Part shown: positions 8,456-47,177 of the stretch, piece by piece | Layout: each line of letters begins with the position of its first letter | Numbering within the stretch: the first letter of the stretch is position 1 | Origin: Candidatus Latescibacterota bacterium | GTDB lineage: Bacteria; Latescibacterota; UBA2968; UBA8231 | Direction: 5' to 3' | Length of the DNA: 64,000 nt | Assembly (NCBI GenBank): GCA_965217585.1 | Contig: OZ244561.1 | Coordinates: forward strand, 1,568,001 to 1,632,000 | The notes under the pieces: generated by a model | Database searches by the model: none | What the model saw: only the letters and a program-made list of their open reading frames with translations | What the model was told of the DNA's origin: nothing | Made by a program: the position numbers and the translations under genes

Positions 8456-8497
8456 CAAAAGAAGCGGAGAGCCTTTCGTGGCCCTCCGCTTCTTTTG
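8456..8497. terminator. Bidirectional intrinsic terminator
   Basis: CAAAAGAAGCGGAG...CTCCGCTTCTTTTG stem with A/T tracts, between convergent genes. Confidence 0.85.
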
Positions 8498-8513
8498 CGT
8501 CTCTATCGAAAAA

Positions 8514-9227
8514 TCAGCGCCGTCGCTTCTTGGGCTTGGCCGACTCCTTTGTCGCGGACGATTTGGAGGCTGGTGCCGACGTCGTTGCGGGCGCTTTCGT
8601 CGCTGACGCACTCGGCGGCGAGCTGACCGAGGACCGCGGCGTGGGCGTAGGCGCATTGCGGACCCGAGGTTCTACCCGCCGCTGCCACACTTCTTCTTCG
8701 CGGCGCTGTACTCGGGTAGCCGCTGCGGGGTCGGTAGTCATCGGCGTCGTATTCAGCCGGCTCGCCGCGCGCAAATCGTCGAGCTGGCGCGTGTTGACCA
8801 GTTCATAACCTGGTGGCACATAGTAACCCCCCGAACTCCGATAGTACGGATCGTAGCCATAACTATAGGGCCCATAGCCGCCATAGTAGGGATTGTAGCT
8901 GCCGTAGTAGGAAGGATAGCCATAGCCACCATAGCCACCATAGCCACCATAGCCACCATAGCCACCATAGCCACCGTAGCCACCATAGCCACCATAGCCA
9001 CCGTAGCCACCGCGCACACCCGGATAGCGGTAGAAATCGTCCATGTAGTCGCGGTCGTCGAACTGGCCAATCGTCGGTGCCTCTACATCGCGGCTCTTGG
9101 CGCGGGCCAGATCCTCGTCGTGCAGGTTGGCCACCTCGTACGGGCTGCTGAGCACCGTGTAGCAGCCGCTGGCCATCAGCGCGGTTAGCGACAGGGCCGA
9201 GCACAAAATCAAAGCCTTCGTTTTCAT
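8514..9227 (-). CDS. Gly/Tyr-rich low-complexity lipoprotein with basic C-terminal tail
   Basis: ATG 9227 with GAGGAGG RBS; lipobox ASGC followed by YT; (GGY)10; S/T/A/P-rich tail ending KPKKRRR. Confidence 0.8.
   Translation of the reverse strand: MKTKALILCSALSLTALMASGCYTVLSSPYEVANLHDEDLARAKSRDVEAPTIGQFDDRDYMDDFYRYPGVRGGYGGYGGYGGYGGYGGYGGYGGYGGYGGYGYPSYYGSYNPYYGGYGPYSYGYDPYYRSSGGYYVPPGYELVNTRQLDDLRAASRLNTTPMTTDPAAATRVQRREEEVWQRRVEPRVRNAPTPTPRSSVSSPPSASATKAPATTSAPASKSSATKESAKPKKRRR
8922..9011 (-). repeat. 9-bp tandem repeat x10 encoding (GGY)10
   Basis: (A/G)TAGCCACC repeated 10 times on the + strand. Confidence 0.95.
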
Positions 9228-33342: not shown

Positions 33343-35571
33343 TCAGCCAAAGCGCCGCAACCGGAGCGCGTTCATCACCACCGACACCGACGAAAAGGCC
33401 ATCGCGAGGCTCGCCAGCATCGGATTGAGCAGCGGACCGCCGAACAGGTAGAGCGCGCCCGCGGCCACCGGAATGCCCGCGGCGTTGTAAAAAAACGCCC
33501 AGAACAAATTCTGCTTTATGGTCCGCACAATCGCTCGGCTCAGCTCAATGGCCCGCGCCACATCCGCCAACCGGCTGTGCATGAGCACCACCGGAGCAGA
33601 CGCGGCCGCCACATCCGTGCCGGTGGCAAAGGCCATGCCCACATCGGCGGCGGCCAGCGCTGGCGCGTCGTTGATCCCATCGCCGACCATGGCCACGCAG
33701 CGGCCCTCAGCCTGCAAGGCCTGCACGGTCGCGGCCTTGTCTGCGGGCAAAACACCAGCGCGCACGGTTTCAATCCCCACCTGACGGGCCACAGCCTCAG
33801 CAGCCGGACGGCTGTCGCCCGTGAGCATCACCACCTCCAAGCCGTATTGACGCAGCCGAGCCACGTCGTCCTTGCTCTGCGGGCGAGGGCGGTCCGCCAA
33901 AGACATGCGCCCGGCCAATGTGCCCGCCGCCGCGACCCACACGGTGGTGGTACCAGCCGTCGGATCGCTGTCCTCGTCTATGTGAACTCCCACCGCCGCC
34001 ATCATGGCGCGATTGCCCACCACCACGTCCTCGCCTTCCACCACGGCCTGCGCGCCTTTGCCCGGCGTCGCCACGACTCCGCTGGCCTCCGGCACGGCAA
34101 GGTCCCGCTCTGCAGCGGCGGTCACAATCGCCGCGGCCAGCGGATGCTCCGAACCGCTCTCCACGGCCGCGGCCAACCTCAGCACTTCGTCGGCGCAGCG
34201 TCCGTTTAACGGCTCTACTGCCACAACCTGCGGCCGCCCCTCGGTGATCGTGCCGGTTTTGTCCAGCACCACGGCATCCACTTTGTGCGCCGTTTCCAGC
34301 ACTTCTGGGCTTTTGAACAAGATGCCTAAATGCGCTCCCCGACCCGTGCCGACCATGATGGCGGCCGGCGTGGCCAAGCCCAGGCTGCACGGGCAGGCGA
34401 TGATCAACACGGCCACGAAAACCTGCAACGCAAAGCTCAGGCCCTCCCCGGCCCACAACCAACCCACCGCAGCCACCACGCCTAGGACCAGCACGACCGG
34501 CACGAAATACCCGGCGACGACATCGGCTAAGCGGGCAATCGGCGCTTTGCCCGCCTGCGCGGCTTCGACTAAGCGCACCATTTGCATCAGCAGCGCATCC
34601 CCGGCCACGCGCGTTGCCCGCACCATGAGCGCGCCCGCGCCGTTGAGACTGCCGCCGGTCACAGCATCACCTAGTCCCTTGACCACGGGCAGCGATTCGC
34701 CGGTCAGCAGCGACTCATCCACTGTAGAATTTCCTTCGACGATTTCGCCGTCGGCTGGGAGGCGCTCGCCCGGACGCACGCGCAAGCAGTCGCCCACCTC
34801 GATGGCGTCGGCCGCAATTTCCCGCTCTCCATCGCCGGTCACCAGCGCGGCCTTGTCGGGCCTGAGCTGCAGCAGGGCACCTATGGCCTCCTCGGCCCGC
34901 AACCGCGAGCGCGCTTCGAGATAGCGGCCCATCAGCATCAAAGTGACAATCGTCGCAACCGTCGGGAAATAGGAGTCAAACGCCGCGGCCGCACCCACGG
35001 CGACGGACCCCAAGCCCCAAGCGCTGTAGAGCCAAGCCGCAGCCGTGCCAATGGCGATGAGCGAAAACATGTTGGGTCGGCCCCGCCACAGAGCCTGCCC
35101 GCCCTCGGCGTAGATCTGGCGGCCAACCCACAGCACCGGCAGCGCAAACAGCAGGTGCAAAACGCCCACCCGTAGCGGATGCTGGGCCAACGACAGCGCC
35201 TGGACAACGGGCGCACCCATCTGCTCGGCCATCTCCACCGCGAAGAGCGGTAGCCAAAACACAACAGCCCAGCGAAACGCACCCGCCTGCGCAGCCAGTT
35301 CGACCCGCTTGCGCTCCTGTCGCCTAGCTGCGCCTTCGGCTTCTGGGGCTTGCAGCCGCGCCTGGAACCCCGCTTTTACCACGGCCGCTGCAATGCTTTC
35401 CTCATCTACAGCCGCCGGATCAAAGCGCACGGCCATCTGCTCGGTCGCCAAGTTGACGTCAGCTACCTCGACGCCGGCCAAGCCGGACACTTGCTGCTCG
35501 ACCTGCCGCACGCAGCCAGCGCAGTGCATGCCCTCAATGGCAAAATGCTGCTCTCTACTGTTTTCTGTCAT
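33343..35571 (-). CDS. copA: Cu(I)-translocating P1B-type ATPase
   Basis: GMHCAGC HMA domain, TGES, ACPC, DKTGT, SEHP, GDGIND, FYN, MAFSS. Confidence 0.95.
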
Positions 35572-35608
35572 GCTGCAACCTCACAACTCAACCGACGAAC
35601 CCGCTCAA

Positions 35609-35651
35609 CGCGGTGGTTTTCAACGCCGGCACGACGTTGAAAACCACCGCG
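35609..35651. repeat. Perfect 17-bp inverted repeat (REP-like hairpin, no U-tract)
   Basis: CGCGGTGGTTTTCAACG-N9-CGTTGAAAACCACCGCG between co-oriented genes. Confidence 0.85.
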
Positions 35652-35670
35652 ACAAGCCATCTGATCCGCC

Positions 35671-36126
35671 TCAGTCGAGCGCGCCTATCAGTTGCTTGAT
35701 CCGCGCCCAAGTCGTCTCCGCAACAGCCGTATCTTGCGGTGCGGGCGGCGGAGTGCTCGCTGGGTCGGCGGGATGAAATGTCTCACCTTCTGGATTGGCA
35801 TCGCCGGCCACCCAAGTGCCGTCTGGATCGCCCAACTCCACGCCATTGGCTATTCCATCGCCATCGGAGTCTAAGGCCGCTAGCTCTGGGCCCCAAACTA
35901 CGTCGCCGGCTGCACCAGCCGCGGTGAGGAAGTTGGTTTCGATCTCTAGGCCAAACGAGTTGCGCGGCGTGCCGCCGCCGGCCGTGTGGCAGGCGTTGCA
36001 GCTAAACGCGGCACCATTGGGAATCTGGCTTACGCGCTTACCGCGTGCAGCGGCCTCCTCGGCGACCAAGCCACCGCAGAGTATAGCTGCCGTCATCAAC
36101 GCGCCCATCTTTTTCCACGTCGTCAT
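35671..36126 (-). CDS. Secreted temptin-like protein with a CxxCH haem-c motif and a C-terminal TAVxxxTWxxIK tail
   Basis: GAAGGAG RBS; signal peptide; IPNG..CNACH..GGGTPRNSFG..W.PEL..LDSDGDG..NGVELGDP..W..HP. Confidence 0.75.
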   Translation of the reverse strand: MTTWKKMGALMTAAILCGGLVAEEAAARGKRVSQIPNGAAFSCNACHTAGGGTPRNSFGLEIETNFLTAAGAAGDVVWGPELAALDSDGDGIANGVELGDPDGTWVAGDANPEGETFHPADPASTPPPAPQDTAVAETTWARIKQLIGALD

Positions 36127-36276
36127 AAGAGGTCTCCTTCCTTTTGTTTATAGATGTGTATTAAACTTGGCTCTCTCTGACTTGCCGGACAAGTCCCTAG
36201 CCGGTCGGCCCGTAGTGCCCCACGTCAGGGTTGCGTATATTGAAGCTCAATCTCGATCTACTCACGCGAGGAGGCA

Positions 36277-38103
36277 ATGCTCATGTCCACCGCTCAACGT
36301 CTCGACCTAAGCGAAATGCGGCCGCAGATCGATGTCGATCCAGCAACCTGCGTCTATCACCGGCTCGCACCGGCTAGCGAATTTGCCACAGGCGAGGGCC
36401 GGCCCTTTACCATTGATGGCATTCACCTCGCGGTCTTTCTCTACGAGGGGTCCTTTCACGCTGTTGACAATCGCTGTCCGCACATGGGCTACCCCATGTC
36501 CAAAGGCAGCATCCGCGACGGGGTGCTGATCTGCCACTGGCACCACTGGGAATTCGATCTAAAGACCGGCGGCTGCCTGCTAACTTCGGGCGACGACCTG
36601 AAAGCCTTCCCCGTGGAAGTGCGCGACGACGGCTGCGCGTGGGTGGGCATCCCGCCCGGCGAAAGAGAAGAGGCCCGCCTGCGGCTGGTGGCCCGCGGCA
36701 AGCGCGCACTCGAACAGGGGCTTAAGGACCGCAGTTCCTTCCTCATCGCCAAGGCGGTCGCCGCGCTCCGTCAGACGGGTGCCACCCCGCAGGAAATCAT
36801 CCAGCAGGGCCTCTACTACGGCGCGCACAAAACCAGCGAAGGCTGGTCGTCGGGCGTCGCCATCCTGACCCTCGCGGCGAACATGTGGGACGACATCGCC
36901 GAGGCCGATCAAAATCTCTTTCTCGTCCACGGCTTGACTCAGATTTCGCAGCGCACCTCCGGCTCGTCGCGCCGCCAGCGCTTCCCCTTTCCCCGCGCCA
37001 ATGCCGACCAAGACTTGGCCACCCTCAAGCGCTGGTTTCGCACCTTTGTCGATCAGCGGCACCACGGCGCGGCCGAGCGCATCTTGCTCACTCTGCACGA
37101 CCGCGACTGCGGCAAGGAAACCCTCGCGGATTTCGTCTTCACCGCGGCCACGGATTTCTACTTCACCGGCGACGGGCACGCCCTCGACTTTGCCAACAAA
37201 ATGTTCGAGGCCCTCGACTATGTGGAATGGGCCGGCGCGCACGAGATCCTCCGCCCGATCGTCGTTGATTTGGTGAGCCGCACCCGCCACGAAGAGACCT
37301 CGCGCTGGGCCGACAGCCTGCCGGTCTTAGAAAACATCTTCGCGCGCCTAGACGAGATCTGGGAGGACAATCAGCGCAACGAAGCTACCATCGACGTCGC
37401 CGAATTCACTCAAGTCATGCTCGGCGACGACTTTGAACCCATCCTCGTCCGCGTCGAAGCGGCCCTGCGCGCTGGCGTCCCGCCGACCCAACTCTGCCGC
37501 GCCATGACCTACGCCAGCGCGCAGCGCACCCTGCGCTTCCACCTCAAAAACGAGGGCGACTGGCACGACGTGGCCAACATTTACTCCTACGCCCACGCCC
37601 TGTATGAGACCTTCCACTACGCCGCCAGCAAGGAGCTGCTGCGCGCCATTTTCCACGGCGCGGTCTTCCTCACCTACCTGCGCTGGCTCAACATGCCGGC
37701 TGCCCGCGTCCCACGGCACGGGCAGAAGCTCGACGAGCACTTCGCCTCCAGCGAGGCCATGCTCAAGCACCTCGGCGAATTAGCCGATTTCCAAAAGGTC
37801 TTTGAGGCCGAAGTCCTCGTCAGCCAGTACCTCGAAGAAGGACGCGACATCGCCAAGCTCCGCCACGCCTTGAGCCACATCATGCTCCGCGAAGACGCCG
37901 AGCTGCACATGTTCCAAGTGCTCGAAGCTGCGTTCCGGCACTACGACCTGAGCAGCGACCCGGAGGAAAAGCGCGTCCACCTCTTGGCGGCGACCCGCTA
38001 CATCACCGCGCAAAAGGTGATGAAAAACATCCTCTGGGCCACGGAAAACGCCGAGCGGCTCCAGCGCGGCGAACTCCTCAGCGAGCGCGAAGACGACGAT
38101 TGA
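36277..38103 (+). CDS. Rieske [2Fe-2S] ferredoxin domain fused to a large helical domain of unknown function
   Basis: DNRCPHMG...CHWHHWEFDL; about 480-aa C-terminal region with GHALDF.NK, DWH, EDAELH; GAGGAGG RBS. Confidence 0.85.
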   Translation: MLMSTAQRLDLSEMRPQIDVDPATCVYHRLAPASEFATGEGRPFTIDGIHLAVFLYEGSFHAVDNRCPHMGYPMSKGSIRDGVLICHWHHWEFDLKTGGCLLTSGDDLKAFPVEVRDDGCAWVGIPPGEREEARLRLVARGKRALEQGLKDRSSFLIAKAVAALRQTGATPQEIIQQGLYYGAHKTSEGWSSGVAILTLAANMWDDIAEADQNLFLVHGLTQISQRTSGSSRRQRFPFPRANADQDLATLKRWFRTFVDQRHHGAAERILLTLHDRDCGKETLADFVFTAATDFYFTGDGHALDFANKMFEALDYVEWAGAHEILRPIVVDLVSRTRHEETSRWADSLPVLENIFARLDEIWEDNQRNEATIDVAEFTQVMLGDDFEPILVRVEAALRAGVPPTQLCRAMTYASAQRTLRFHLKNEGDWHDVANIYSYAHALYETFHYAASKELLRAIFHGAVFLTYLRWLNMPAARVPRHGQKLDEHFASSEAMLKHLGELADFQKVFEAEVLVSQYLEEGRDIAKLRHALSHIMLREDAELHMFQVLEAAFRHYDLSSDPEEKRVHLLAATRYITAQKVMKNILWATENAERLQRGELLSEREDDD

Positions 38104-38109
38104 GGGGCG

Positions 38110-41100
38110 TTACTCCGCAGACCGCCAAGCCGCAAGCCGCAGCTTCCACTCCTCGACCGCGCAGTAGAGCACCGGCACAATCGGCGCGGTCAGCACCACC
38201 GCCATCATGCCGCCGAAGGTAGGGATGGCCATCGGCAGCATGAGGTCTGCGCCGCGTCCGGTCGCCGTCAGCACGGGGATCAGCGCCAAGATCGTGGTAG
38301 CCGCCGTCATCAGACAGGGGCGAATGCGCCGCACTCCAGCGGCGAGCGCCGCGCGGCGCATCGCCTCGACGGTCGCTGGCTTTTGCTCGCGGAAGAGTTG
38401 GCGCAGATAGGTCGCCACGATCACGCCGTTGTCCGAAGCAATGCCAAACAGCGCGAGAAAACCCACCCACACCGCCACGCTCAAGTTCACAGGACGGATG
38501 TGGAAGAGCGAGCGCATCTCCGTGCCGAAGACGGAAAAGTCCAAAAACCATTCCTGCCCGTAGAGCCAGAGCATGGCAAAACCGCCGGCCCAAGCCACGG
38601 CAACCCCGGAAAAGACCATCAGGGCCGTGGCGGCGTTGCCAAACTGGAAATAGAGGATGAGGAAGATCGTCGCCAGCGCGAGCGGCAGCAGCACGTTGAG
38701 CTTCTTTTGCGCCCGCAGTTGGTTTTCGTAACTACCGGCGAAGGCGTAGCTGACGCCGGTCTCCAATACGAGATCGCCGCTGGCCCTTTTACTGGCCAAA
38801 TAATATCGACACGCTTCCACCACATCGACTTCCGCGTACCCCGGCTTCTTGTCGAAGAGCACGTAGCCTAGCAAAAACGTATCCTCGCTTTTGATGACCT
38901 GGGGGCCGCGCACGTAGCGAATCTCGGCCAGCTCGCCCAAGGGGATCTGCGCCCCGTCCGGTGCTGGCACCAAAATTCGCACCACTTCCTCGATGCTGTC
39001 GCGCAATTCGCGCATGTAGCGCACCCGCACGGGATAGCGCTCGCGGCCTTCCACCGTGGTCGTGACCAGCTTGCCGCCGATGGCGATCTCAATGACGTCC
39101 TGCACCTCTTGCAAGGCGATGCCGTGGCGGGCAATGGCCTCGCGGTCGATGTGGATCTCCAAGTAGGGCTTGCCGACGATGCGGTCGGCGTTGACGGTCG
39201 CCGACTCGACCATGGGCACTTTCTTGAGCAAGCGCTCTAGCTGCAAACCGGCGCGCTCGATGGCCTCCAAGCTCGGGCCTTTGATCTCAATGCCCATGGG
39301 GGCGCGCATCCCACTCTGCAACATGACGAGCCGCGCGGCAATCGGCTGTAACTTCGGTGCCGAAGTAGAGCCGGGGATTTGGCCGGCCTGGGTGATCTCC
39401 GCCCATATATCGTCGGCCCCCTGTATCCCCGGCCAAGCGGCGCGTCCCAGATTAAGCGCGGGATCCAAGGGCGGACGCCACAAGCGGAAAGGCCGCCCAG
39501 CGGCGTCGGGCACGAGGCGGCCGGCTGCGTCGCGGAGATAGCGGCCTGGCACCTTGTAGGGCGCACCATCGGGAGCGGACGCAGGCGTGCCATCGGGAGC
39601 GCGGAACAGGTCCGTGGCGCGCTCGTCAAAAGCGAATAGCAGGCGACGGCCAACCTCGTCGGTGAGGTATTCCGCGCGATAATTAACCACGGTCTCAATC
39701 ATGGAAATCGGCGCGGGGTCCAGCGGGGTCTCCGCCCGTCCCAGCTTCCCCACCACGGACTCCACTTCTGGTATCTGCGCAATGGCCGCGTCTTGCTTCT
39801 GCAGGACGTCGAGTACCTCGCCGATGGAGGCGTGGGGCATGGTCGTCGGCATCCACAGGAAGGAACCTTCGTCGAGGGGCGGCATAAACTCCTTGCCCAA
39901 TCCGGGCAGGGCCTCGTCGAGGGCGGCAAAGGGCGCTGAATTGCGCAGGACAGGCGGCACAAAGCCGAAGACGCGGGCAAAACCTAGCCACGCGGACGCG
40001 CCGGCCAGCAGCAGTAGCACGGGAAACAGCAGCGCCAACCCCTTGTGGTCCAGGCACCACCGGAGTACGCGGGGGAATACATGTTGCAAGACGCGAAAAA
40101 GTGCCAACAGGCCGCCGATCAATCCAGCGACGAAAAGAAAATTGCGCCATCCGCCCTTTTCCGGGCCAAGGGGCAACCAGTGTTCCGCTAGTACAACAAC
40201 GACCCCGATAGCCGCAGCGGCCACCACACCCCGCGCCACCCATAAGCGCACCCACTCCGGCACGCGGGCGGCGAGTAGGTGATACGCCCCAATAGCTATC
40301 AGCAGCAGACCGATCCACCACGACAGCGCGAGGGCCACTCCGAGGCCACAGACCGCCCAAAGGCCAGGTGCCCAACGCCCCGGTCGCGTGCCAAACGCGC
40401 AGTGCGCCAAGGCCGGCAAGGCCGTCAGCGACAGCCACACCGCGGCCAACAGCGCAAAGGTCTTGGTAAAGGCCAGCGGCGTAAAGAGCTTGCCCTCGGC
40501 TCCTTCCATGGCGAAGACGGGCAAAAAGCCCACCACCGTGGTCAGCACGGCGGTCAGCACGGCACTGCCGACCTCGCGCGTGGCGCGGAAGATCACTTCT
40601 AGGCGGTCGTCCTCTGCCTCTGCATCCTCTAGGTGCTTGAGAATGTTCTCGCTGATGACGATGCCCATATCGACCATAGTGCCGATGGCAATGGCAATGC
40701 CGGAGAGGGCGACTATATTGGCGTCAATGCCAAAGGCCTTCATGGCGGCGAAGCAGGCGAGCACGGCCAGCGGCAACAGCCCAGAGACCAACACGGCACC
40801 GCGCAGATTCATCACCAGCGCCAGCACCACGATCACCGTTACCAGCACCTCCTCGCTCAGGGCGCGCTCCAGCGTGCCCAGCGTCTCCTCGATCAATCCG
40901 GAGCGATCGTAAAAAGGGATCACCTGCACTTGGCTGACCCGCCCGTCGGGCAGGGTTTTCTTAGGCAGGCTCGGGGCGATTTCCGCGATCTTGGCCTTGA
41001 CGCTTTCAATGGCGGCTAGGGGATTGGCACCGAAGCGCGCCACAACCACGCCGCCGACCACCTCCGCACCTTCCTTGTCCAACGCGCCGCGCCGCAGCGC

Positions 41101-41976
41101 TGGCCCCAGCGCGACCCGCGCGACGTTTTTGACGTAAATCGGCACGTTGTCCCGCGCCTTAATGACGGCGTTTTCAAGGTCGGCCAATCCTTTGACAAAG
41201 CCGATGCCGCGGATGACGTATTCGGCTCGATTCAGCTCTACAGTGCGCGCACCCACGTCCCGGTTGGACATGCGCACCGCGTGGAACACCTCGTCGAGCC
41301 GCACCCCATAGGCGCGCATCGCGTCCGGGTTGACGTCGATTTGGTATTCCTGCACGAAGCCGCCCACGGAGGCCACCTCGCTGACGCCGTCGGCAGCCAA
41401 CAAGGCATAGCGCACCTGCCAGTCCTGAATGCGGCGCAACTCGTGCAGATCCCAGCCGCCGGTGGGCGCGCCCTGTTCGTCGCGGCCTTCCAACGTGTAC
41501 CAGAATACCTGCCCCAAGGCCGTTGCGTCCGGCCCCAAGGCCGGCTGGACGCCCTCGGGCAGCAGGCCTGCCGGCAGGCTACTGAGCTTCTCGAGGATGC
41601 GGGAGCGCGACCAATAGAAATCGACTTCTTCGGCAAAAATCACATAGATGCTCGAAAAGCCGAACATCGAGAAGCTGCGGATCGTCTCGACGCCCGGCAC
41701 GCCCAAAAGCGCCGTAGTCAGCGGATAGGTCACCTGATCTTCCACGTCTTGCGGCGAGCGACCCGGCCACTCGCTGAAGACGATCTGTTGATTCTCGCCG
41801 AGGTCTGGGATCGCATCTACGGGCACCGGGTCGCGCGGCAGCCACGCTATATCCCAAGCAAAGGGAGCGACCGCAAGGCCCCAACCCACGAGGCCGGCCA
41901 ACATGAGCGCGGCGACCAGCTTGCGCGTGAGAAAGAAGCGCACCAAGCGGGCGAGCAGCGAGTTTTGCCCTTCCAT
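38110..41976 (-). CDS. cusA: CusA/CzcA heavy-metal RND permease (long variant with insertions)
   Basis: DAIPDLGENQ, GRSPQDVEDQVTYP, GPDATALGQ, EFMPPLDEG..MP, PAPISMIET, RIRPCLMT. Confidence 0.92.
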   Translation of the reverse strand: MEGQNSLLARLVRFFLTRKLVAALMLAGLVGWGLAVAPFAWDIAWLPRDPVPVDAIPDLGENQQIVFSEWPGRSPQDVEDQVTYPLTTALLGVPGVETIRSFSMFGFSSIYVIFAEEVDFYWSRSRILEKLSSLPAGLLPEGVQPALGPDATALGQVFWYTLEGRDEQGAPTGGWDLHELRRIQDWQVRYALLAADGVSEVASVGGFVQEYQIDVNPDAMRAYGVRLDEVFHAVRMSNRDVGARTVELNRAEYVIRGIGFVKGLADLENAVIKARDNVPIYVKNVARVALGPALRRGALDKEGAEVVGGVVVARFGANPLAAIESVKAKIAEIAPSLPKKTLPDGRVSQVQVIPFYDRSGLIEETLGTLERALSEEVLVTVIVVLALVMNLRGAVLVSGLLPLAVLACFAAMKAFGIDANIVALSGIAIAIGTMVDMGIVISENILKHLEDAEAEDDRLEVIFRATREVGSAVLTAVLTTVVGFLPVFAMEGAEGKLFTPLAFTKTFALLAAVWLSLTALPALAHCAFGTRPGRWAPGLWAVCGLGVALALSWWIGLLLIAIGAYHLLAARVPEWVRLWVARGVVAAAAIGVVVVLAEHWLPLGPEKGGWRNFLFVAGLIGGLLALFRVLQHVFPRVLRWCLDHKGLALLFPVLLLLAGASAWLGFARVFGFVPPVLRNSAPFAALDEALPGLGKEFMPPLDEGSFLWMPTTMPHASIGEVLDVLQKQDAAIAQIPEVESVVGKLGRAETPLDPAPISMIETVVNYRAEYLTDEVGRRLLFAFDERATDLFRAPDGTPASAPDGAPYKVPGRYLRDAAGRLVPDAAGRPFRLWRPPLDPALNLGRAAWPGIQGADDIWAEITQAGQIPGSTSAPKLQPIAARLVMLQSGMRAPMGIEIKGPSLEAIERAGLQLERLLKKVPMVESATVNADRIVGKPYLEIHIDREAIARHGIALQEVQDVIEIAIGGKLVTTTVEGRERYPVRVRYMRELRDSIEEVVRILVPAPDGAQIPLGELAEIRYVRGPQVIKSEDTFLLGYVLFDKKPGYAEVDVVEACRYYLASKRASGDLVLETGVSYAFAGSYENQLRAQKKLNVLLPLALATIFLILYFQFGNAATALMVFSGVAVAWAGGFAMLWLYGQEWFLDFSVFGTEMRSLFHIRPVNLSVAVWVGFLALFGIASDNGVIVATYLRQLFREQKPATVEAMRRAALAAGVRRIRPCLMTAATTILALIPVLTATGRGADLMLPMAIPTFGGMMAVVLTAPIVPVLYCAVEEWKLRLAAWRSAE

Positions 41977-43496
41977 CAGTGCCCTCCGTGACTGTGCTCA
42001 GGCGCGGATGTGTCGCCGGATGCCGTGGAGGATGCGGACGCGCTACCTCCACCGTGGTCGTGCCCGTGCGCTGGCGCGCCGCCGGCTGGATACATCGCAC
42101 TGGGCTGGGCGCGTATCTGGAGGGCACTGTCGATTTTGAACGCGCCATTGACCACCACTTCCTCTCCCTCGCGCAGCCCCTTGCGGACCAAGTAGTAATC
42201 CCCAGCCCGCGGCCCCAGCACCACCTCGCGGCCCTCGTACAGGCCCTCGCCGAGCGCGACGTACACCACGGCTCGTTTGCCCGTCAGCAGCGGTGCCGAA
42301 GCCGGCACCACTAGCGGCGCGGCACGCCCTGCCTCGTCGCCCGCGCCATAGCCCAGCTCTTCGGCACGCACTAGGGCCATGCCGCAAATGTCGCAGGTGC
42401 CGGGCGCGTCGCGGACGATCTCTGGATGCATCGGGCTGATCCATTTGCCCAGCAGCGCGGGAGACATGGCGCGCCCATTGGCCCCCACTTCGGCCTGGGC
42501 CACGGCCCACACCAGCATCCCCGGTTTCAGCCGACCTTGCTCGTTGGCCACGTTGACCCGCACGCGCACGGTACGCGTGCGCTCGTCCAGCACTGGATCG
42601 ACGAAGGATATTTGGCCGCTGAACACCTCGCCCGGATAGGCCTCGGCCGAAAATTCGACGGTCTGACCGTAGTGGATCCAAGACAAGTCCGACTCGTAGG
42701 CGCGGAGTTCTAACCACAGCCGCGACAAATCCGCGATGGTGTAAATCGGCGTTCCGGTCTGCACGTACGCTCCTTCACTGAGGTGCTTTTTTATCACCAC
42801 GCCGCCTGTTGGCGCGTAGATCGTCAGGTGGTCGAAGGCTTGGCGCTCGCGCTCGACGCGCTCGATTTGTTCCTCTTTCAGCCCGAGCAGGCGCAGCTTT
42901 TCGCGCGCGGCCGCAACCGTTGCCTGCGCCGTCTGCCCGACCGACGTGCCGCTGTCAACCAATCGCTCGTGAGCGCGCAGGGCTTGGATCAGCTCCTCTT
43001 GGGCGGTCAACAGTTCGGGGCTGTAGAGATAGGCTATGTGGTCGCCCTCTTCGACTCGCACGCCTGTGTAGTCCACGTACAGCCGATCAAGCCGGCCCGC
43101 TACCCAAGCGGTAATGGAGCGGACCTGCGTCTCATCTACCGCGATCTTGCCGACCATCCGCGTCTCGACCGGCGCGAAGCGGCGCTTGACTGGCGCGGTC
43201 TGGATGCTGGCGAGCTGCTGCGCGGCGGGCGATAGACGCAACTGGCGTGGCCCCAAGGAGTCGCCGACAGCGGGTGCGGCCACCGGGATTAGGTCCATCG
43301 CGCAGATTGGACACTGACCTGGGCCAGGCTGGCGGATCTGCGGGTGCATTGAGCAGGTCCACGTTTCGCCCTGCTCGGCGACCGCGGCGGGTGCGTGACC
43401 GCTAGGTGTATCCGAGCCGCCCAAACCCCAGCCCACGGCCAAGCCGACGATCCCCGCCACGATGCCGGTAGCTATCACTTGCTTTGTCGCTTTCAT
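41976..43496 (-). CDS. cusB: CusB-type periplasmic adaptor with two heavy-metal-binding domains and a His-rich tail
   Basis: WTCSMHP...CPICAM; WISPMHP...CDICGM; YSPEL; LKPGM; HGHDH...HSHGGH. Confidence 0.92.
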   Translation of the reverse strand: MKATKQVIATGIVAGIVGLAVGWGLGGSDTPSGHAPAAVAEQGETWTCSMHPQIRQPGPGQCPICAMDLIPVAAPAVGDSLGPRQLRLSPAAQQLASIQTAPVKRRFAPVETRMVGKIAVDETQVRSITAWVAGRLDRLYVDYTGVRVEEGDHIAYLYSPELLTAQEELIQALRAHERLVDSGTSVGQTAQATVAAAREKLRLLGLKEEQIERVERERQAFDHLTIYAPTGGVVIKKHLSEGAYVQTGTPIYTIADLSRLWLELRAYESDLSWIHYGQTVEFSAEAYPGEVFSGQISFVDPVLDERTRTVRVRVNVANEQGRLKPGMLVWAVAQAEVGANGRAMSPALLGKWISPMHPEIVRDAPGTCDICGMALVRAEELGYGAGDEAGRAAPLVVPASAPLLTGKRAVVYVALGEGLYEGREVVLGPRAGDYYLVRKGLREGEEVVVNGAFKIDSALQIRAQPSAMYPAGGAPAHGHDHGGGSASASSTASGDTSAPEHSHGGH

Positions 43497-44761
43497 CGTT
43501 GAATTTCCTCTGTGGTTGAGGGTTCGCCGACCAGCTTTTCAATCTCGGCCCCATGCAGAGCTTGGTCGGTGCGCGCTCGTTCGTACGCTAGCTGGAACTC
43601 CAGCAGGGTGCGTTGGGCGTCGATGACCGCGAGAAAATCGCTGCGATCGGCGGCAAAGGAGCGTTGGGTTACGTTGAGCGCCTGTTCGGCCTTGGGCAGC
43701 AGGCTGTCTCGGTAGAGGGTGCTGCGACCTTGGGCGTCGCGCCGTTTGTACAAGGCCAACTCCAGCTCGGCTACGAGCCTATTTTTTTCGTCCGCAACGC
43801 CCTGCAAGGCGGCCTGATAGCTCAGCTTGGCCGCGCGTTCTCCGGCCTCATAAGACGAACGCCACAAGGGCAAGTTGAGCGTAGCCATCGCCATCAGCGG
43901 ATTCTCCCCGCGGTCCCCACCGATGTGGATGTAATCGAGGCTCACGGTCAGGTCCGGGTAGAACTGTTTGCCGGCCAACTCGACGCCTAGGGACTGCGCC
44001 CGCGCCTGCACTTGTCGCATTTGCAGCGTTGGGTTCGCGGCCTGCAAGCGCGCTTTTAGCACCTCCTCGTCGAGATCCGACGCGGGCATGGGCAACGAGT
44101 CGGGCACGGCTACCGGCGCAGTCGCCGAGCGGCCAAGTGCGGCATTCAACCGGGCCGTGGCCGGCCGCCGCTGCTGACGCAGACTGCGTAGCTGGTCCTC
44201 TAGGCGGCCCAATTCCACCTGCGCCTTGAGCACGGGAGCGTGCTCTCCAGTGCCGCTGCGATAGCGGGCGCGGCCTACTTCTTCCAGGTGAGCCAACAGC
44301 CGCAAGTTTTCCTCGGTGACGGCGATGGCCCGCTGCAAAAAGTAGTAGTCGTAGTACGCGGCCTTGACCTCGAAAATAAGCGACCGCCGCACGGTCTCAT
44401 AGCGCTGGCCTTCGACTGCGGCCTCTTGCTGAGCGATCCTCCCCTTGAGATCCAATTTGCCCTTCCAAGGGAAGGTTTGCGCCGCACTAAAGCGCATTTC
44501 CTGCGGACCGGTGCGCGTCTCCACCGGACGCGCGAAATAGCCGTAGGTCAGGCGGGGATCGACCCAAGCGCACGCCGGGTCCACCTTTGCTAGGGCGGCT
44601 TTATAGCGCGACAAAGCCTGCTTGAGCTTGGGGCTGTGCGATTCGGCGTAGCGCGCGTACTCCGCGAGCTCGGCGCGGGGATCGAGCGCGACTTCTTCCT
44701 GCGACCAGACCGGGCCTGCGACCAGACCGGCCAATAGCAGGGCCGTTCTATTTTTGTACAT
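43493..44761 (-). CDS. cusC: TolC/CusC outer-membrane efflux factor
   Basis: QTFPWKGK, FYPD, LNLPLW, FLAVIDAQR; ATGA overlap with cusB. Confidence 0.88.
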   Translation of the reverse strand: MYKNRTALLLAGLVAGPVWSQEEVALDPRAELAEYARYAESHSPKLKQALSRYKAALAKVDPACAWVDPRLTYGYFARPVETRTGPQEMRFSAAQTFPWKGKLDLKGRIAQQEAAVEGQRYETVRRSLIFEVKAAYYDYYFLQRAIAVTEENLRLLAHLEEVGRARYRSGTGEHAPVLKAQVELGRLEDQLRSLRQQRRPATARLNAALGRSATAPVAVPDSLPMPASDLDEEVLKARLQAANPTLQMRQVQARAQSLGVELAGKQFYPDLTVSLDYIHIGGDRGENPLMAMATLNLPLWRSSYEAGERAAKLSYQAALQGVADEKNRLVAELELALYKRRDAQGRSTLYRDSLLPKAEQALNVTQRSFAADRSDFLAVIDAQRTLLEFQLAYERARTDQALHGAEIEKLVGEPSTTEEIQR

Positions 44762-46071: not shown

Positions 46072-46160
46072 ATCTACTCTCCTTTGGGCTTTTCAAGACG
46101 GCGTTCTCGGATATATTGTCAAAAGTAAGTCGCCTCACACCCTTCAGCAAACGACCGCTT

Positions 46161-47177
46161 ATGCCTGCTAGCTCATCCAGAATTGGCGTCCTCGTCGCCC
46201 AGCTCGGTACACCCCAAGCACCCACCGCCCGCGCGTTGCGTCCCTATCTGCGCCAATTTCTCTCCGATCCGCGCGTCATCGACCTCCATCCGCTCAGGTG
46301 GTATCCCATTCTCTATCTGTTTGTCCTCACCCGCCGACCCGCGCGCTCAGCCGCCCTGTATGCCAATATCTGGACCGACGAAGGCTCGCCTCTCATGGTC
46401 CATTCCCAAGCGCAAACCCGCGGCTTACAAGAGCGGTTGGGCGCGGCGTATCGGGTCGTGCTCGGCATGCGCTACGGCGAGCCGAGCATCGCGCGCGCCG
46501 TCCAGTCCCTAGAGCAGGAAGGCGTCGAGCGCATCCTCGTCTTTCCCATGTACCCGCAGTTTTCTTGCGCCACTACCGGCTCGATCTACGACGCGGTCAA
46601 CCGCGCTGCCTTGGGCCGGCGCTGCCCTTGGTTTTTCGACCGCAAACGCCAGATGCCGGCGCTGCGCTTCGTCCCGCCCTATGCCGACCATCCCGCGTAC
46701 ATCAACGCGCTCAAACAGTCGGTCGCCGCAGCAGTCGCCCGCCTCAGTTGGACCCCCGACCGCTACCTAATCACCTTCCACGGCATTCCCCGACGCTACG
46801 TCGATGAAGGCGACCCCTACCGCCGCCACTGCGAGGAAACCGCGCGTCAACTAGCCGCGGCGCTGGGCCTCGCAGACGACGAGTGGGTCAGCGGCTTCCA
46901 ATCGCGCTTCGGCAAAGAGCCTTGGCTAGAGCCTTATACCGAGGAGGTGCTGGCGTGCCTCGGGGGACTGGGCGTGCGCCGCTTAGTGGCCATCTGCCCC
47001 GGCTTCACCGCCGACTGCCTTGAGACACTCGACGAAATTGGCCGCGAAGGGGCCGAGCAGTTTTCCCACGGGGGCGGCCAACAGTTTCACTTAGTGCCCT
47101 GCCTCAACGACCACCCGACCTGGCTCGACGCCATGGCAGCCATTGCCCGCCAAGAACTGGCCGGCTGGAACGCCTGA
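46161..47177 (+). CDS. hemH: Ferrochelatase
   Basis: QLGTP, FLSDPRV, GSPL, MRYG.P, PMYPQFS, FHGIP, FQSRFG..PWLEP, DCLETLDE. Confidence 0.96.
   Translation: MPASSSRIGVLVAQLGTPQAPTARALRPYLRQFLSDPRVIDLHPLRWYPILYLFVLTRRPARSAALYANIWTDEGSPLMVHSQAQTRGLQERLGAAYRVVLGMRYGEPSIARAVQSLEQEGVERILVFPMYPQFSCATTGSIYDAVNRAALGRRCPWFFDRKRQMPALRFVPPYADHPAYINALKQSVAAAVARLSWTPDRYLITFHGIPRRYVDEGDPYRRHCEETARQLAAALGLADDEWVSGFQSRFGKEPWLEPYTEEVLACLGGLGVRRLVAICPGFTADCLETLDEIGREGAEQFSHGGGQQFHLVPCLNDHPTWLDAMAAIARQELAGWNA

Follow-up and report, generated by a model that had tools for sequence, protein, structure and literature searches.

The window analysed here, a 64,000-nucleotide stretch of a Candidatus Latescibacterota genome (contig OZ244561.1, positions 1,568,001 to 1,632,000), encodes a small temptin-like protein with a CxxCH motif just upstream of copA, and the evidence leans modestly towards this protein being a calcium-stabilised mono-haem c-type domain of undescribed type that serves redox chemistry in the cell envelope, with a possible link to copper. 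Under this reading, the cytochrome c maturation (Ccm) system would attach haem to C43 and C46 of the exported protein with H47 as the proximal ligand, an EF-hand-like Ca2+ loop (D86–E97) would hold together a fold almost without secondary structure, and the lack of a conserved distal His or Met would leave the haem five-coordinate or weakly ligated. A proline-rich linker and a C-terminal tag probably fix the location of the protein in the envelope, where it could act as an electron carrier or as a haem reactive towards small ligands or metals, and it may pass electrons to or from periplasmic copper. The gene is real and conserved, and is present as a single copy in the source genome (one contig, 94.6% complete).

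By profile comparison, the window protein belongs to the Pfam family Temptin_C, its score for PF24784 being 49.9 bits where the cut-off is 27 (E 4.6e-13), over profile positions 5–96 of 98. The kinship with temptin that an earlier note on this DNA had proposed is thus upheld at the curated threshold over residues 29–119, and the motifs quoted there are all present in the translation: IPNG (35–38), CNACH (43–47), GGGTPRNSFG, W78 with PEL, LDSDGDG (85–91), NGVELGDP (94–101), W105 and HP (118–119). The last of these stood only in part, as P119 is kept while H118 varies between H, A, N, R and F among 28 bacterial homologues. A word-indexed search returned 244 relatives at E ≤ 1e-3, with PF24784 found in all of the best 120 of the 244, and an exhaustive profile search returned 2863 cluster representatives (50% identity) at the same threshold, 1136 of them at E ≤ 1e-10.

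Both the CxxCH motif and the DxDxDG loop are conserved across close and distant homologues. An alignment of 28 homologues, which share 51–95% identity with the window protein, shows no change at C43, C46 or H47, nor at D86, D88, D90, G91, N94, G95, E97, L98, G99 or P101. In a deeper alignment of 97 sequences (32–58% identity to the window protein), P36, C46, H47, W78, D90, N94, G95 and D100 remain invariant and C43 is kept in at least 90%, with no second conserved His and no conserved Met in either alignment. Motifs were further examined in 149 of the best 150 of the 2863 representatives, the remaining one being already in hand; D.D.DG was present in 137 and CxxCH in 147. CxxCH is missing from an N-terminally truncated sequence (P0169) and from one whose disrupted N-terminus still reads NCH (P0214). 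The earlier note had held that loss of CxxCH among homologues would tell against a cytochrome, and the motif instead proved to be kept at both distances. A count of motifs in six-frame open reading frames (ORFs) gave 135 CxxCH against 164 HCxxC in a reversed control, a comparison that is uninformative.

The layout of the protein suggests export. Its N-terminus reads as a Sec signal peptide, with K5 and K6 in a basic n-region, residues 7–21 as its hydrophobic core and an A-A-A/R cleavage site; A27 and R28 are invariant in the 28 homologues, and residues 3–26 are modelled as a single helix. The mature protein contains two Cys (both in CxxCH), two His, no Met and no Tyr. The disulfide-forming Cys of animal temptin are therefore absent, as previously noted, with C43 and C46 the only Cys of the mature part. 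The Aplysia protein, a component of a water-borne pheromone complex, shares with the window protein the PF24784 match and the skeleton IPNG...H...NxFG...W...DSDGDG.xNGxELGDP...W, and presumably carries disulfide-forming Cys pairs outside the His position. In the window protein, by contrast, the conserved His is part of CxxCH, whose two Cys are the only ones of the mature chain, and the ends of the precursor are a signal peptide of bacterial type and a C-terminal tag specific to the lineage. Its putative calcium loop gave a weak match to TSP3_bac (E 0.043, below the cut-off).

Haem binding by the domain is likely and well motivated: the conservation of CxxCH including its His, the predicted export, the Ccm genes of the host, fusions to redox proteins and adjacency to a cytochrome bc operon all favour it. 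The source genome encodes CcmF, CcmC and CcmE, with three PF01578 matches (an 829-residue CcmF-like frame and a CcmC-like frame among them) in addition to CcmE, while ResB was not found there; the host is accordingly capable of making c-type cytochromes, as the haem proposal had supposed. Among 23 longer or odd representatives picked from the 149, the domain was fused to a pyrroloquinoline quinone (PQQ)-type glucose/sorbosone dehydrogenase (P0249), a cupredoxin (P0259) and CHRD domains (P0182, P0213). In a survey of gene neighbourhoods, covering the best 80 of 108 confirmed loci from public genomes, an operon for a Rieske protein, cytochrome b and a multihaem cytochrome c lies 79–162 bp downstream of the temptin-like gene in six loci scattered over the tree of these sequences (L026, L027, L034, L043, L045 and L065). 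This operon encodes a 150-residue Rieske protein, a cytochrome b of 383–425 residues and a membrane-anchored multihaem cytochrome c with c7/c3-type motifs (for example, L026:7397-9812 and L034:8543-10934). It stands between the temptin-like gene and copA in L026, L027 and L034, with csoR preceding copA in the latter two, and occurs without copA in L045 and L065. In the source genome itself, one haem-copper oxidase is encoded, which may provide an acceptor for a cytochrome c.

The same relatives also bear on a cofactor-less alternative, in which the domain would be a calcium-binding module akin to the animal pheromone component, with its CxxC forming a disulfide, used for surface adhesion or matrix binding, and its adjacency to copA would simply be inherited gene order. 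The calcium-loop residues are as conserved as CxxCH, and most relatives are cargo with type IX secretion system (T9SS) sorting domains, dockerins or Ig-like domains; T9SS sorting domains were found in nine of the 23 representatives scanned, with dockerins and Ig-like domains also present. The gene backbone from ferrochelatase to UPF0261 and the PEP hydrolase is kept with or without copper genes, and UPF0261 follows the temptin-like gene directly in three loci (L046, L052 and L054). However, a disulfide would leave the invariant His immediately after the second Cys unexplained, the fusions to redox enzymes and the neighbouring Rieske, cytochrome b and multihaem operon point to electron transfer, and a Ccm-positive host would be expected to load haem onto an exported CxxCH. 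Such a module is considered distinctly improbable, and were the domain nonetheless haem-less, it would be puzzling in its own right that exported proteins of bacteria with Ccm keep CxxCH without variation.

As a candidate c-type haem domain, the protein cannot be filed in any described cytochrome family. Like c-type cytochromes, it is predicted to be exported, has one CxxCH, belongs to a host with Ccm and, as in small multihaem proteins, shows little regular secondary structure. It is unlike class I cytochromes, cytochrome c' and the class III/c7 group in lacking any detectable sequence or fold relation to them and in holding a Ca loop within the domain. Class I cytochromes have a distal Met or His, whereas H47 is the sole invariant His here; a parallel for the missing distal ligand is provided by the five-coordinate cytochrome c'. 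The lone NCBIfam match was to diheme_GEGP (E 0.23), and a feature match to cytochrome c7 in the ESM Atlas scored 0.84, below the trust level. A structural model built from the 97-sequence alignment was confident, with a predicted local distance difference test (pLDDT) score of 90.2 and a predicted template modelling (pTM) score of 0.74, and mostly irregular, a trait typical of small haem-wrapped domains. An earlier model from the 28-sequence alignment was poor (pLDDT 58) and was set aside.

A second line of evidence concerns copper. The window gene order runs cusC-cusB-cusA (minus strand), a 608-residue Rieske-domain gene (plus strand), the temptin-like gene, copA and UPF0261 (minus strand). 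The copA gene starts 99 bp downstream of the temptin-like gene on the same strand, in agreement with the co-orientation and spacing of about 100 bp given previously, and its product carries a single HMA domain at the N-terminus as well as a CPC motif. Across the 80 surveyed loci, the flanks contained copA in 29, cusA in 23, csoR in seven and a Rieske/cytochrome b module in six. In a tree of 81 domain sequences (the window and the 80 loci; 127 columns, with many forks unresolved), the window falls in a group of 35 rows (support 94/88, not starred), within which cus genes and/or copA are found in the flanks of 33 of 35 loci, compared with three of 46 elsewhere. The copper-gene linkage proposed in the earlier note thus holds for the window's own clade and is rare among the remaining loci. 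Within the group of 35, identity to the window CopA drops to 59–67% and the intervening genes differ.

In one subclade (L038, L040 and L042), the temptin-like gene lies 80–174 bp after cusA with no terminator-like hairpin between them, and in L040 and L042 it is followed by a hairpin with a T run and then by a separate csoR-copA unit, while the L038 sequence ends 21 bases after the gene. This final position in a cus operon, together with inserts in some orthologues and the lack of CusF, multicopper oxidase and CsoR in the source genome by Pfam search, keeps the copper link alive. The inserts are 20–70 residues long, have a high content of His, Asp, Glu and Gly, sit between the Temptin_C domain and the linker in eight orthologues (P0074, P0076, P0085, P0089, P0098, P0101, P0105 and P0113), include for example a conserved EEDH-x-EH-x-HEGD block, and look like metal-binding loops. 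Taken together, the copper link is real for the window's clade, is not family-wide and is not cleanly separable from synteny, and a copper-handling role for the protein itself is plausible, if tentative.

These observations also raise the alternative that CxxCH forms a Cys2-His metal site in a periplasmic Cu(I) chaperone or buffer, passing copper from CopA to CusCBA as a stand-in for CusF or CopJ. The gene lies between cusCBA and copA in the window and comes last after cusA in L038, L040 and L042, the source genome has no CusF homologue, and the orthologue inserts are rich in potential metal ligands (His, Asp and Glu). Like CusF, the protein is small, is predicted to be periplasmic and is encoded at the end of the cus operon in those three loci; unlike CusF, it has no match to CusF_Ec (PF11604) at E ≤ 1, has no mature Met, belongs to a different fold family and, in the window, is encoded outside the cus operon with an opposite-strand gene intervening. 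A lead from the ESM Atlas, at a score of 0.80 that is below the trust level, is a Myxococcota cluster of proteins of about 590 residues with Cu-binding_MopE (PF11617) and Temptin_C on all members, which hints at a possible further association with copper, independent of the first. Against a chaperone, CxxCH including its His is kept in 147 of the 149 representatives, mostly in non-copper contexts such as T9SS cargo and dehydrogenase fusions, and just three of 46 loci outside the window's clade lie near copper genes. Beyond an exported CxxCH, the Ccm system demands little for haem attachment, and Cu(I) in the periplasm is usually bound by Met and His, as Cys pairs are oxidised there. A Cu(I) chaperone is therefore judged unlikely.

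The closest described parallel in gene position is CopJ of Rubrivivax gelatinosus, which is a small, copper-induced, exported CxxC protein encoded beside copA (PMC4600104) and thus lends some support to a chaperone. In a Cupriavidus cop cluster, copJ is listed as a 'putative cytochrome c' (PMC12029693). The window protein resembles CopJ and CopI as a small exported protein encoded next to copA or other cop genes, the likeness to CopJ and CusF being one of gene position only. No published description of bacterial temptin-like proteins was found, the search returning animal papers only and leaving subscription journals outside its scope; among these, one study lists temptin with the markers of low-dose copper exposure in mussel larvae, on expression only and with no mechanism (PMC8696127). 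With the window protein as query, tblastn gave no match in 72,556 plasmid records.

Several observations weigh against a calcium-stabilised c-type haem domain with a link to copper. For haem, there is no conserved sixth (distal) ligand, the mature protein having neither Met nor Tyr and H118 being variable, and no cytochrome c family was matched in Pfam at E ≤ 1. Cytochrome b is absent from the source genome, so that the bc-complex partner of the relatives is missing there. A PF01578 gene occurs in all 103 Temptin_C-positive genomes of the phylum, but also in 124 of the 125 genomes of the phylum overall, leaving the test of co-occurrence with Ccm without discriminating power. In the comparison with cytochrome c and temptin folds proposed in the earlier note, Foldseek matched no solved structure in the Protein Data Bank (PDB), using a model that included the signal helix and tail; VIA-align found no chain with Z ≥ 2 among 48161, and a search of PDB sequences returned nothing beyond the FlgD-like sorting domain that longer relatives carry. 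A fold search of BFVD likewise gave no match to the model, although such absences are not proof of a new fold. For copper, the linkage is confined to one clade of Temptin_C loci, the opposite-strand 608-residue gene separates the temptin-like gene from cusA in the window, and a strong hairpin separates it from copA. In addition, the non-copper flanking genes are equally conserved, and much of the copper link may therefore be plain synteny.

This last point is borne out by the arrangement of the loci. UPF0261 and the PEP hydrolase are conserved throughout, with or without copper genes, and the region is a syntenic backbone in which modules for copper and for respiration are variably gained and lost. 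In the window's subclade, the 608-residue Rieske gene is inserted upstream and copA stands directly after the temptin-like gene. The Rieske gene is kept upstream in the close clade at 85–97% identity, and is present in L010 and L021 where copA is gone.

If the domain does bind haem, it would represent a widespread c-type haem module (2863 clusters) that is unrelated to every solved cytochrome fold and that many little-studied phyla place on their exported and surface proteins, and the animal temptin family would gain a bacterial redox ancestry. The cus/copA context, with neither CusF nor multicopper oxidase, and the Rieske/cytochrome b context are rare functional clues to the module. The copper-efflux context, the bc-complex context and the tail tag of temptin-like CxxCH domains are all new. 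A bolder extension, for which the odds are long, is that a calcium/c-haem class with an open distal site is the missing periplasmic partner of Cus and CopA in this lineage, oxidising Cu(I) or exchanging electrons with copper, and that animal temptin is a haem-less descendant of a bacterial cytochrome.

The animal connection could also be read in the opposite direction, with the window protein a eukaryote-like factor derived from, or aimed at, an animal host such as a sponge and mimicking temptin signalling, as the earlier note had suggested. The nearest relatives include metagenome-assembled genomes with sponge-type isolate names, and two RNA runs holding part of the stretch are labelled sponge metagenome. 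Ankyrin-repeat proteins, which are eukaryote-like repeat proteins common in symbionts, adjoin the temptin-like gene in two loci where copA is missing (556 residues at L010:8591-10258 and 643 residues at L021:8565-10493). However, the family spans 2863 clusters and many bacterial phyla and occurs in 103 of the 125 genomes from the source organism's own phylum; the 80 surveyed loci alone come, by their database labels, from Latescibacterota, Gemmatimonadota, Ignavibacteriota, Myxococcota, Bacteroidota, Planctomycetota and Pseudomonadota. The GC content of the gene (0.63) equals that of its neighbours, though GC at third codon positions is lower (0.66 versus 0.75–0.82), and secreted animal proteins could not make use of a haem motif, which depends on cytochrome c maturation. 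The breadth of the family in bacteria means that a eukaryote-derived host-interaction factor is not supported, and host mimicry is regarded as highly improbable. Coordinates of the gene, its parts and its neighbours are collected in Table 1.

Table 1 Features of the temptin-like gene, its product and the adjoining genes in the window.
Feature	Residues	Window position	Strand	Description and basis
cusC		43493-44761	-	OEP
cusB		41976-43496	-	HlyD_D23 and HMBD
cusA		38110-41976	-	ACR_tran
608-residue Rieske-domain gene		36277..38103	+	Pfam Rieske 5.3e-16; between cusA and the temptin-like gene, divergent
Ribosome-binding site		36134..36143	-	Coding-strand sequence AAGGAAGGAG; AGGAG 7 nt upstream of ATG
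Temptin-like CxxCH gene	1-151	35671..36126	-	151 residues, ATG start, stop codon 35671-35673; ORF list, translation, Pfam PF24784
Signal peptide (putative, Sec-type)	1-27	36046..36126	-	Cleavage after A27; hydropathy and n/h/c layout
Temptin_C domain	29-119	35770..36042	-	Pfam envelope 29-119; pLDDT 96-98 over residues 31-120
CNACH, putative haem-c attachment motif (CxxCH)	43-47	35986..36000	-	Conservation in homologue alignments
Putative calcium loop, EF-hand/TSP3-like	86-97	35836..35871	-	DSDGDGIANGVE; conservation
Pro-rich linker	120-131	35734..35769	-	ADPASTPPPAPQ; 28-homologue alignment
C-terminal tag	132-151	35674..35733	-	DTAVAETTWARIKQLIGALD; type TAVE-x2-[ST]W[GA]x[IV]K
Intergenic hairpin		35609..35651	-	20-nt arms, 3-nt loop, no T run; repeat search
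copA, Cu(I)-type P1B ATPase		33343..35571	-	TIGR01511 2e-179; HMA, E1-E2_ATPase and Hydrolase (HAD) domains

The 99-nt spacer between the temptin-like gene and copA folds at −52.9 kcal/mol (z −6.3) in RNA folding. Its hairpin is unique in the source genome. Many close relatives have a similar one at this position, and others carry a different GC hairpin there. A consensus promoter and terminator scan of positions 35300–36500 gave no match, the hairpin not being a consensus terminator; it may affect read-through or lend stability to the message upstream of it. In an alignment of 15 loci that covers the region before the temptin-like gene, the GGAAAGGAG block of the ribosome-binding site is conserved, and most relatives also share a TTGACT-containing block, with a different spacer in the window, L010 and L021; no operator could be named in this alignment.

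The temptin-like gene is probably expressed. Contigs assembled from RNA libraries cover it in all four runs examined, from three studies, at 88–99% identity, and one contig of 1633 nt (X20) bridges the start of copA and the temptin-like gene. As assembled contigs, these indicate presence in RNA libraries and do not speak to transcription, strand or operon structure, and stretches without contig cover carry no meaning.

The C-terminal tag also bears on the function of the protein, as its destination, periplasmic or outward, is directly relevant to the copper readings. The window protein ends in TAVAETTWARIKQLIGALD, and the same type of tail, often ending in F, closes 63 ORFs of the source genome, nearly all of which have signal peptides. 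No Pfam or NCBIfam model covers this tag, and it is carried by 11 of the 149 Temptin_C representatives. The source genome has a T9SS, with SprA and 48 Por_Secre_tail matches, and the window protein has neither a Por_Secre_tail nor an FlgD_ig sorting domain. The presence of a T9SS with its own sorting domains in this genome makes the tail a second, undescribed C-terminal tag. Temptin-like proteins of the FCB group sorted by the T9SS share the N-terminal domain with CxxCH and Ca loop, differing in that they end in Por_Secre_tail or FlgD_ig where the window protein ends in its tag of 20 residues. Eight of the tagged proteins were scanned, comprising a PD40 propeller, an FGE-sulfatase-type enzyme and six without a family. 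Across the 63 proteins the tag takes the form TAVE-x2-[ST]W[GA]x[IV]K-x2-(F), and most of them belong to a paralogous family of about 300–330 residues without Pfam match.

Further features were observed in the genes around the temptin-like locus. The CusA-like resistance-nodulation-division (RND) pump has 1288 residues, about 250 beyond the 1021 positions of the ACR_tran profile; its match to this profile is broken into three stretches, and it probably carries a large insertion. The CusB-like adaptor has two matches to the heavy-metal-binding domain HMBD (PF19335), and these domains may replace a separate CusF. The 608-residue protein has an N-terminal NirD-like Rieske [2Fe-2S] domain (residues ~29–118) followed by about 490 residues without a family match. 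In L040 (positions 8478-8540), and also in L042 and L035, the temptin-like gene is followed by a hairpin with a T run and then, ahead of csoR-copA, by a promoter-like TTGTCA...TAGAAT element, the spacer of which forms a perfect palindrome, ATATACCCCC-A-GGGGGTATAT, resembling a CsoR operator. Finally, ferrochelatase is encoded beyond the cus genes in the window (46116-47177, plus strand), directly upstream of the temptin-like gene in L045 (6637-7680) and nearby in L027 and L065, so that a haem-synthesis gene is part of the conserved backbone.

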